IMG/VR virus record: IMGVR_UViG_3300025018_002313
Direction: 5' to 3' (one strand)
Length of the DNA stretch: 64,000 bases
DNA from: a virus
Shown here: positions 15,587 through 16,683 of the stretch, in pieces
Layout of the letters: the number at the start of each line of letters is the position of its first letter
How positions within the stretch are numbered: the stretch's first letter is position 1
The notes under the pieces: generated by a model
Databases searched by the model: none
What the model was told of the DNA's origin: nothing
Seen by the model: the letters and a program-made list of their open reading frames with translations, nothing else
Translations under genes and position numbers: made by a program

Positions 15587-15841
15587 TTAACCCGTCTCTC
15601 TTTTCATTCTATCTACAGGCAAGTCAGGAGACAGTGCATTATACGACTGCTTCCCTTGTTTCTCTTGTTGCTTATTCTTCTCTACCTCAATATGATATTG
15701 CCAGTAGATAGTGCGCTCAATAGGAGGAATAGATTCCACGTATTCGGGAGTAAATCCAAGATCTCGAGTCAAGTGATAAATTTCATGAAAAACACCAAAC
15801 AGGTTGTCATTGAAAATTAACTTGAGGAAATCATAAAAAAA
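15587..15841 (-). CDS. putative -1 frameshift extension of tail assembly chaperone (GT-like)
   Basis: Alternate frame stays open from the T_TTT_TTT heptamer (15835..15841, within last codons of the 288-aa gene) to a stop abutting the tape-measure ATG; classic gpG/gpGT arrangement. Confidence 0.35.
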   Translation of the reverse strand, partial: FFYDFLKLIFNDNLFGVFHEIYHLTRDLGFTPEYVESIPPIERTIYWQYHIEVEKNKQQEKQGKQSYNALSPDLPVDRMKRETG

Positions 15842-16683
15842 CTTCCGTCTATCGTCAACCTCCTGTCGTACTCTTTACCGTCAAATTGAAACTTAACTAC
15901 TTCAATTTTGTTTGATTCCTCTTTAACCTTATTAATATAGCCAACAATATCTTTCAATAAGGCAGTATTAAACGATTCTACAACCGTAATACGATCCTTA
16001 AAGTTAAATTTGTCCCAAGAAACCGGAGTTACGGCTTCTTCCGTCTTAACCGACACGTCTGAAATATATTTAACTATCTCATCAATAAAAGCTTCACCGA
16101 TAGTATCTCTCAAAGCCTTATTCGATTCAATCTCGATGTTCTCGTTGTTTAGACGGAATTCCCTCTCTAATCTGTATTCTGTTCCGACTGTGGGTACACT
16201 ACATTCAATAACAAATAGATCGTTTTCAAACATTACAGGCTTAATGCTTGATAATGTAGTTTTAGCTACTTCATGTAACTTAATAAGATCTACTGAAACT
16301 GTCTGCGACGGTTTTTCAGCATCCGGCTTAACATCCAGATCAATTCTCCCTCCGATGCTACTAATACGAAGACCTAATGCAATAAGGAGTTTATCTATAA
16401 CTGTTAAGTTATCTATATTAACTTCCTCCTCGACGCAATTCTCTCTTAGTATATCACGAAAGGTTTGAATGTATTCTGTATTATATACTGGTGAGTCTAC
16501 AATCGACTTGATCAATCTCTTTTGCTGTGATGTGTTTATTTCACTGAACCTTACATCCCGTCCTAACGAAGGAACCCAATAATTGGATGCATATGTTGTC
16601 TTCTGCTTTTGTACCGCATTAAGAATCTGCGTGATGTTAGTCATTACTTCTGGTTTGTTATCAATATTATCTTGATTTGTCAT
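15817..16683 (-). CDS. tail assembly chaperone (G-like), hypothetical
   Basis: 288 aa between tube and tape-measure genes; late-promoter-like CATAAATA and RBS AAGGAG upstream. Confidence 0.45.
   Translation of the reverse strand: MTNQDNIDNKPEVMTNITQILNAVQKQKTTYASNYWVPSLGRDVRFSEINTSQQKRLIKSIVDSPVYNTEYIQTFRDILRENCVEEEVNIDNLTVIDKLLIALGLRISSIGGRIDLDVKPDAEKPSQTVSVDLIKLHEVAKTTLSSIKPVMFENDLFVIECSVPTVGTEYRLEREFRLNNENIEIESNKALRDTIGEAFIDEIVKYISDVSVKTEEAVTPVSWDKFNFKDRITVVESFNTALLKDIVGYINKVKEESNKIEVVKFQFDGKEYDRRLTIDGSFFMISSS
15835..15841 (-). other. candidate -1 programmed ribosomal frameshift slippery heptamer T_TTT_TTT
   Basis: Seven consecutive T on - strand in X_XXY_YYZ register with the chaperone zero frame (…AGT TTT TTT ATG…), 5 codons before its stop. 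Confidence 0.35.

Follow-up and report, generated by a model that had tools for sequence, protein, structure and literature searches.

Evidence for a programmed −1 frameshift yielding short and long T4 gp26/gp51-type tail assembly chaperones in a clade of uncultured phages

The window, by which we mean the whole 64-kb stretch of DNA analysed, carries on its minus strand a 288-aa ORF (16683..15817) followed by a 1013-aa ORF, identified in this work as a short-form tail assembly chaperone gene (TAC-N, T4 gp26-like; 15817..16683, zero frame) and, directly downstream of it, a tape-measure-like gene (12542..15583). The 288-aa ORF ends with GGA AGT TTT TTT ATG ATT TCC TCA AGT TAA, in which the zero-frame codons AGU UUU UUU contain a candidate slippery heptamer, U_UUU_UUU (15835..15841, minus strand, register read from the sequence). 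The preliminary description of this DNA had placed a seven-T run in slippery register five codons before the stop of the gene, which was confirmed: the seven T at 15841..15835 lie in the X_XXY_YYZ register (T_TTT_TTT) and are followed by five sense codons and the stop. Past the slip site the −1 frame reads TAT GAT TTC ... (peptide Y D F L K L I F N D N ...) over 82 codons and terminates at the TAA at 15589..15587, after which come a second TAA and the ATG (15583) of the 1013-aa ORF. The claim that the −1 frame stays open beyond the slip thus held, but the claim that it ends exactly at the tape-measure ATG did not, as it stops 3 nt short. This −1 extension (TAC-C; 15587..15835, minus strand, 82 codons plus stop) has no start of its own and is homologous to the C-terminal part of T4 gp51; a −1 shift at the heptamer would join it to the upstream 283 residues in a predicted 365-aa (283 + 82) long-form chaperone (TAC-NC, T4 gp51-like; 15587..16683, minus strand).

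The minus-strand order at the locus is sheath, tube, (orf248, on the other strand), chaperone and tape-measure-like gene, and the arrangement sheath, tube, orf248, chaperone, tape measure, orf276, gp25-like is kept across the clade, including the group with two chaperone genes described below. The window encodes further T4-type proteins, namely a terminase of the gp17 type (32% identical to cyanophage gp17), a wedge protein resembling gp25, a protein whose N-terminus is gp5-like, an ssDNA-binding protein resembling gp32 and a neck protein, in addition to the T4-type sheath and tube. It is position and composition that suggest a tape-measure-like function for the 1013-aa product; its homologs occupy the same position in relatives, its PHROG matches were weak and confined to the Gly-rich central part, BLASTP against T4 gp29 found no similarity, and the gene contains no DNA-level tandem repeats of note. 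A T4 late promoter between the chaperone and tape-measure-like genes was considered and rejected, the motif TATAAATA not being enriched in the window (6 found versus 7.3 expected).

The 288-aa product matched the PHROG family phrog_150, annotated as baseplate hub (E 1.1e-6, to profile positions 17-234), and the 365-aa fusion matched the same profile uninterrupted across the slip site (residues 35-329 to profile positions 17-274, E 3e-9), while the corresponding fusion of a relative, L038, reached E 6e-63. PF12322 (T4_baseplate) was matched by 18 of 31 family members; among the window proteins, the Pfam scan gave no match for the chaperone, the extension or the tape-measure-like protein. T4 gp26 (208 aa) falls in phrog_150 over profile positions 14-235 (E 6.7e-71) and T4 gp51 (249 aa) over positions 13-280, with the C-terminal part of gp51 corresponding to phrog_634. 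Since both are phrog_150 proteins and gp51 has the extra C-terminal part, they are the short and long forms of one family. Alignment of the profile of 39 fusion proteins with that of T4 gp51 and 30 long-form proteins (hhalign) gave a probability of 100% and E 2.9e-56, with window residues 30-336 colinear with gp51 residues 2-249 through the junction. The comparison of the family with the single T4 sequences was not significant in hhalign (gp26, E 0.25; gp51, E 0.046), and neither the 288-aa protein nor the extension had a tblastn match among 50,697 GenBank phages. Homology to the T4 proteins emerged only through PHROG profiles and family-against-family hhalign, and the window proteins reach only modest PHROG E-values (1e-6 to 3e-9). 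For the short form, AF2 gave a confident model (pLDDT 86, pTM 0.81), which matched 48 BFVD models, many of them named baseplate hub or gp26; among solved structures, its predicted fold was closest to three tail assembly chaperones (HK97 2OB9, YqbN 3KLU and 3FGX). By these profile comparisons, the short product is a member of the T4 gp26/gp51 family (phrog_150, PF12322) and the shifted product is a gp51-type long form. The preliminary description had also invoked a mosaic tail module, a view that these data do not support: the chaperone is itself of the T4 family, its shifted form aligning with full-length gp51, and its neighbourhood is conserved. The T4-family homology and the clade-wide gene order rather indicate that the chaperone is native to the lineage and was not imported from another phage type.

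A search of 5.8 billion proteins returned 93 homologs of the short form, nearly all of 253-302 aa and sharing a striking conserved C-terminus (...RRLtIDGsFFxIS), for which DNA was taken from IMG/VR and JGI metagenomes. The set used to compare the frameshift region was made up of complete loci with 33-89% amino acid identity, 57 loci representing 42 distinct sequences. All of these carry NNT TTT TTT with its register unchanged and 1-5 codons ahead of the stop, except three loci with GGG TTT TTT. Heptamer positions 2-7 are T in 100% and position 1 in 95% of the set, G_TTT_TTT occurring in two of the 42 distinct sequences (the same three loci), and wobble positions near the heptamer are only 40-70% conserved. 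Past the zero-frame stop, the −1 frame is open for 64-90 codons throughout the set and the +1 frame is closed. Comparison of relatives for conservation of the overlapping frame thus showed the heptamer, its register and the open −1 frame to be kept in 42 distinct sequences.

The −1 frame also bears the marks of a coding sequence. Conservation of its peptide begins with the first codon past the slip (Y.FLK.lF..NLH..y.eIY.l....GFs.eYVE.l.P.ER.LY..Y) and nucleotide variability by −1 frame codon position, 0.40/0.28/0.60, has codon periodicity. The codons for a conserved Leu-Lys pair of this peptide (CTA AAA or CTG AAG) contain the zero-frame stop, so that both reading frames are constrained. Searched against PHROG, the extension matched phrog_634, baseplate hub assembly catalyst (E 1.2e-4 for the window peptide), as did the extension peptides of 12 of 13 relatives (best E 4.6e-6). 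Against 1.84 billion representative proteins, the extension retrieved about 40 short ORFs of 50-125 aa starting at many points inside the domain, thirty proteins of 243-333 aa in which the match lies at the extreme C-terminus, and five of 156-179 aa that fall outside both main kinds. Judged by their scattered starts, the short ORFs are gene-caller artefacts. When the short-form and extension HMMs were run on all stop-to-stop ORFs of the window, exactly one TAC-N and one TAC-C match were found, joined at the slip site, and no separate long-form gene was detected. A single match of each kind joined in this way places the window within the gp26/gp51 family, but with a frameshift architecture like that of cyanophages.

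Candidate stimulatory elements were sought on both sides of the heptamer. Upstream, a Shine-Dalgarno-like AGGAGGT lies within the coding sequence (15858..15864, minus strand), 16 nt from the heptamer. A match of at least 5 nt to TAAGGAGGTGA located 5-35 nt upstream of the heptamer was found in 83% of 41 distinct loci versus a background of 14%, measured in 30-nt windows of the same genes; these loci are phylogenetically related, so the counts are not independent. The element is mostly 16-22 nt from the heptamer and persists where the encoded amino acids differ (RRL, KEE, WRM, QEI). In the gene bodies AGA outnumbers AGG 2.5-fold, whereas the slip-region sequences, inspected by eye, mostly have AGG at the element. 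The optimal spacing of a Shine-Dalgarno element upstream of a heptamer is 10-14 nt, and the −1 signal of E. coli dnaX combines an upstream Shine-Dalgarno, the heptamer A_AAA_AAG and a downstream hairpin. Our sites resemble dnaX in the homopolymer-type heptamer, in the enriched internal element upstream and, in some subclades, in a 9-bp hairpin 5-6 nt downstream. They differ from it in the Shine-Dalgarno spacing (16-22 nt versus about 10 nt in dnaX), in the lack of a conserved downstream structure and in the shifted product being longer, not shorter. Because of this longer spacing, a role of the element in frameshifting can only be inferred.

Downstream, a stem-loop was present in part. The window has a predicted imperfect hairpin (15760..15832, minus strand) starting 2 nt after the heptamer, a weak candidate stimulator, with a fold MFE of −19.7 kcal/mol for 90 nt (z −2.8) and of −24.6 kcal/mol for 120 nt (z −2.6). 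It is kept with one compensatory pair in the 89%-identical relative L003 but not in L044, and the subclade hairpins do not share the same column register. RNAalifold over 41 distinct sequences yielded no consensus downstream structure, on which result a clade-wide RNA structure was rejected.

One competing explanation, that chance or artefact is at work, supposes either an accidental T-run followed by an accidentally open frame or a homopolymer error splitting one 365-aa gene. Runs of at least seven T or A are indeed frequent in this window of 39% GC (20 in 64 kb, both strands counted), and since a T7 run alone is so common, the decisive evidence against chance is comparative. The run, its register, the early zero-frame stop and the open −1 frame recur in many independent metagenome assemblies, and the zero-frame stop sits within codons that the −1 peptide conserves. 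In addition, from the off-frame stop frequency of 8.8% per codon, the probability of 82 open codons is about 5e-4. The comparative data contradict this explanation, which we regard as having almost no chance of being correct; going by the sequences compared, the slip site and the open −1 frame are not accidental. It is likewise very improbable that the −1 ORF is translated alone, from a non-canonical start or by reinitiation, to give a free small gp51-like protein. A TTG-initiated 61-aa ORF does exist at 15772..15587, and gene callers routinely call short ORFs at this place, GenBank annotating the cyanophage gp51 in this manner; against this, conservation of the peptide already starts at the slip site, and that TTG lies 21 codons further downstream. 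Possible starts of the extension lie at differing positions among relatives and none is conserved, the extension of L004 having no ATG, GTG or TTG within its first 74 codons, and the ORFs that are called begin at many points within the conserved domain. In lineages devoid of the slip site, moreover, the domain invariably forms the C-terminal end of a protein about 300 aa long.

We hold it highly likely that recoding at this site gives rise to both chaperone forms, and a programmed −1 ribosomal frameshift is very probably the means by which the slip-site gene makes them. The other form of recoding, in which RNA polymerase occasionally inserts an extra U at the run of seven T, seven A on the template strand, would lead to the same 365-aa fusion and, the protein being identical, the two mechanisms cannot be separated by sequence data. 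It is in keeping with such slippage that, apart from the homopolymer run, no conserved nucleotide element is shared by all loci and that no clade-wide RNA structure was found, yet we deem it improbable for several reasons. The run is exactly seven T (or G plus six) in 42 of 42 distinct sequences, never longer and always in the X_XXY_YYZ register; the related sites of cyanophages and of L038 are T_TTT_TTC, a classical heptamer with only six T; and the enriched Shine-Dalgarno-like element upstream fits a ribosomal mechanism. Documented bacterial transcriptional slippage sites, such as those of Thermus dnaX and Shigella mxiE, use longer runs, of 9 or more. These observations together favour a ribosomal over a transcriptional shift.

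Comparative, profile and structural evidence therefore bear out the earlier proposal of a −1 programmed frameshift giving a G/GT-like chaperone pair upstream of the tape measure. In the ribosomal reading, the 288-aa gene would provide a distantly T4-like myophage with its tail assembly chaperone. Ribosomes would mostly stop normally and release the short form, equivalent to gp26 (TAC-N), and a minority would slip back by one base, with two tRNA-Phe on U_UUU_UUU, and read 82 more codons to produce the 365-aa long form, equivalent to gp51 (TAC-NC), ending just before the tape measure gene. The assembly function proposed for both forms is drawn from lambda G/GT and T4 gp26/gp51: on that analogy, both would attach to the tape measure protein, which the long form would bring to hub or tube proteins, and the finished virion would contain neither.

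A frameshift in the tail assembly chaperone gene is reportedly conserved among long-tailed phages (Xu, Hendrix & Duda 2004, Mol Cell 16:11). The present gene resembles that of lambda gpG/gpGT in lying directly upstream of the tape measure gene, in having a −1 heptamer slip a few codons before the stop and in a long form that consists of the short form plus a C-terminal domain without its own start. It differs in its heptamer, U_UUU_UUU as against the G_GGA_AAG of lambda, and in the size of the short form, which at 288 aa is about twice that of the usual chaperone; there is no detectable sequence similarity to lambda G, and the window phage has a contractile, T4-type tail, unlike lambda.

T4 itself shares the family (phrog_150, PF12322) with the window, the short form being the counterpart of gp26, but its genes 26 and 51 are divergently transcribed, have no slip site and are not adjacent to gene 29, in contrast with the single frameshifted gene directly upstream of a tape-measure-like gene in the window. 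gp26 and gp51 were listed as hub assembly chaperones by Leiman 2010 (PMC3004832), and Vladimirov, Gautam & Davidson 2022 (Virology 566:9), as reported in PMC10885494 and PMC12846349, identified them as the tail assembly chaperones of T4-like phages. The account in PMC10885494 includes some T4-like phages with a short gene and a long fused gene in place of the frameshift. The preliminary description was thus right in that T4 lacks the frameshift, the two forms being encoded there by two genes, 26 and 51, as already published. Its view that the arrangement is unusual next to T4-type genes did not stand, as cultured T4-like cyanophages share the slip-site layout.

Those cyanophages (Kyanoviridae, e.g. 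Synechococcus phage Syn19) have, as the window does, one gp26-type gene that carries a poly-T heptamer shortly before the stop, a −1 frame open into a gp51-like domain and a very long gene next. In Syn19 the end of the gene reads AGT TTT TTC GCA TAG and the −1 frame is open for 64 codons; its heptamer, T_TTT_TTC, lies one codon before the stop, versus T_TTT_TTT and five codons in the window. The cyanophage chaperone proteins are only remotely related to that of the window, which had no tblastn match among the GenBank phages. The L038 fusion matched 689 GenBank phages, with coverage of at least 80% of its length in 499, and in the matches inspected it was split in two pieces, across a gene annotated as gp26 baseplate hub and a short one annotated as gp51 baseplate hub assembly catalyst.

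A third arrangement was found in distant relatives of the window protein (23-29% identity, C-terminus IDGSLFSxR), which have neither a T-run nor an open −1 frame. In these, a second paralog of about 290-300 aa containing both parts lies directly upstream on the same strand. Such uncultured relatives with tandem paralogs (L023-L037, L090, L095, L097, L099) are like the window in family and neighbourhood but differ in that the long-form gene stands immediately upstream of the short-form gene, versus the single slip-site gene of the window. The family as a whole therefore comprises divergent genes in T4, tandem paralogs in this uncultured group and the slip site in cyanophages and in the clade of the window.

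We can advance only tentatively, as a possibility that we consider rather unlikely, that the signal goes beyond the heptamer alone, the coding-embedded Shine-Dalgarno-like element (at an unusually long spacing of 16-22 nt and kept through different codings) and the lineage-specific hairpins together setting the ratio of short to long form, and that frameshift and two-gene architectures were interconverted more than once within the family. Were repeated interconversion true, the family would be a natural system for the gain of a recoding signal or its hard-wiring into duplicated genes.

Both chaperone frameshifting in phage tails and the T4-like chaperones having been published, the locus is an uncultured and divergent new case of an already known type of signal. 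The finding is solid and useful for annotation; it would not surprise a phage specialist and opens no new biological question. With it, the gene can be annotated correctly throughout an uncultured clade of large T4-like phages (contigs of up to about 250 kb), where the output of gene callers is a 288-aa hypothetical protein, either alone or, at times, accompanied by a spurious small ORF. The metagenomic data also corroborate independently the published view of T4 gp26 and gp51 as short and long tail assembly chaperones. GenBank records of cyanophages annotate two separate genes and no frameshift, and many of them carry a truncated gp51 where the frameshift product is expected; in Syn19, the annotated 45-aa gp51 is just the tail end of the open −1 frame.

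Inside the coding sequence of the 288-aa chaperone gene (15817-16683, minus strand), a Shine-Dalgarno-like AGGAGG (15858-15864, minus strand) lies 16-22 nt upstream of the T_TTT_TTT heptamer at which the gene is predicted to be read into the -1 frame, and is retained at the corresponding place in most of 41 related loci, irrespective of the encoded amino acids. In the slip-region sequences listed, inspected by eye, the arginine codon at this spot was mostly the rarer AGG, although AGA exceeds AGG 2.5-fold across the gene bodies. One subgroup of relatives, formed by TARA and marine metagenome contigs (L075, L076 and L077), carries GGG TTT TTT (G_TTT_TTT) in place of the heptamer. 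Their -1 frame is nevertheless open and conserved, and six T are therefore enough. This variant resembles the GTTTTT motif reported for the chaperones of Pakpunavirus (PMC12846349). In one relative, on a 32-kb IMG/VR contig (L019, 4971-6053), the chaperone gene is split over three frames, two of them holding pieces of the part corresponding to the short form and the third holding the -1 extension, which reflects either an assembly error or a decaying gene.

GenBank records of T4-like cyanophages carry two separate gene annotations in this region, "gp26 baseplate hub" and, for an ORF of 45 aa, "baseplate hub assembly catalyst". In Synechococcus phage Syn19 (L103, NC_015286.1, 4185-4390; similar regions are found in rows H16-H31 of the GenBank phage matches to the fused chaperone of a relative), the -1 frame spans 64 codons and opens at AGT TTT TTC, one codon upstream of the gp26 stop, the annotated 45-aa ORF being merely the end of that frame. 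Because the small "gp51" ORF is only this end, hundreds of GenBank records of T4-like cyanophages probably lack a programmed frameshift that should be annotated. The gene following the small ORF, of more than 1100 aa, is annotated as "endolysin" and occupies the slot expected for the tape measure gene.

The chaperone model searched against BFVD also matched segments of jumbo-phage proteins 450-690 aa in length, with E-values of 1e-4 to 1e-7, including those of Erwinia phage phiEaH2 (J7KJQ2), Ralstonia phage RSF1 and Klebsiella phage Eowyn, which suggests that gp26/gp51-like domains are embedded within much larger proteins in these phages. Two homologs (P0024 and P0038) were deposited at NCBI as proteins of bacterial metagenome-assembled genomes (Patescibacteria group and Clostridia) and most likely originate from phage contigs that were sorted into bacterial bins.

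The tube gene is separated from the chaperone gene by a 248-aa ORF on the strand opposite to both (orf248; 16743-17489, plus strand), for which no family match was obtained. Every relative (L003-L077) has a homolog in this position, in many cases of roughly double the length; it is inverted only in the subclade of the window (L003, L005-L008, L049 and L051) and co-directional in the others. The 919-aa sheath gene is flanked by two tube-like paralogs, both matching phrog_45 "tail tube", one at 17552-18106 (minus strand) and an upstream one of 211 aa (21036-21671, minus strand) located between terminase and sheath.

Directly downstream of the chaperone gene, the 1013-aa tape-measure-like protein (12542-15583, minus strand) contains in its N-terminal third, at residues ~195-375, about four repeats of ~45 aa, seen in the translation, with the pattern ...W/F-R/K-F/Y-N-R-L-...-K-L-...; Tandem Repeats Finder detected no notable tandem repeats in the gene at the DNA level. 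A long hydrophobic, Gly-rich stretch with weak "peptidase/endolysin" PHROG matches makes up the central part of the protein.
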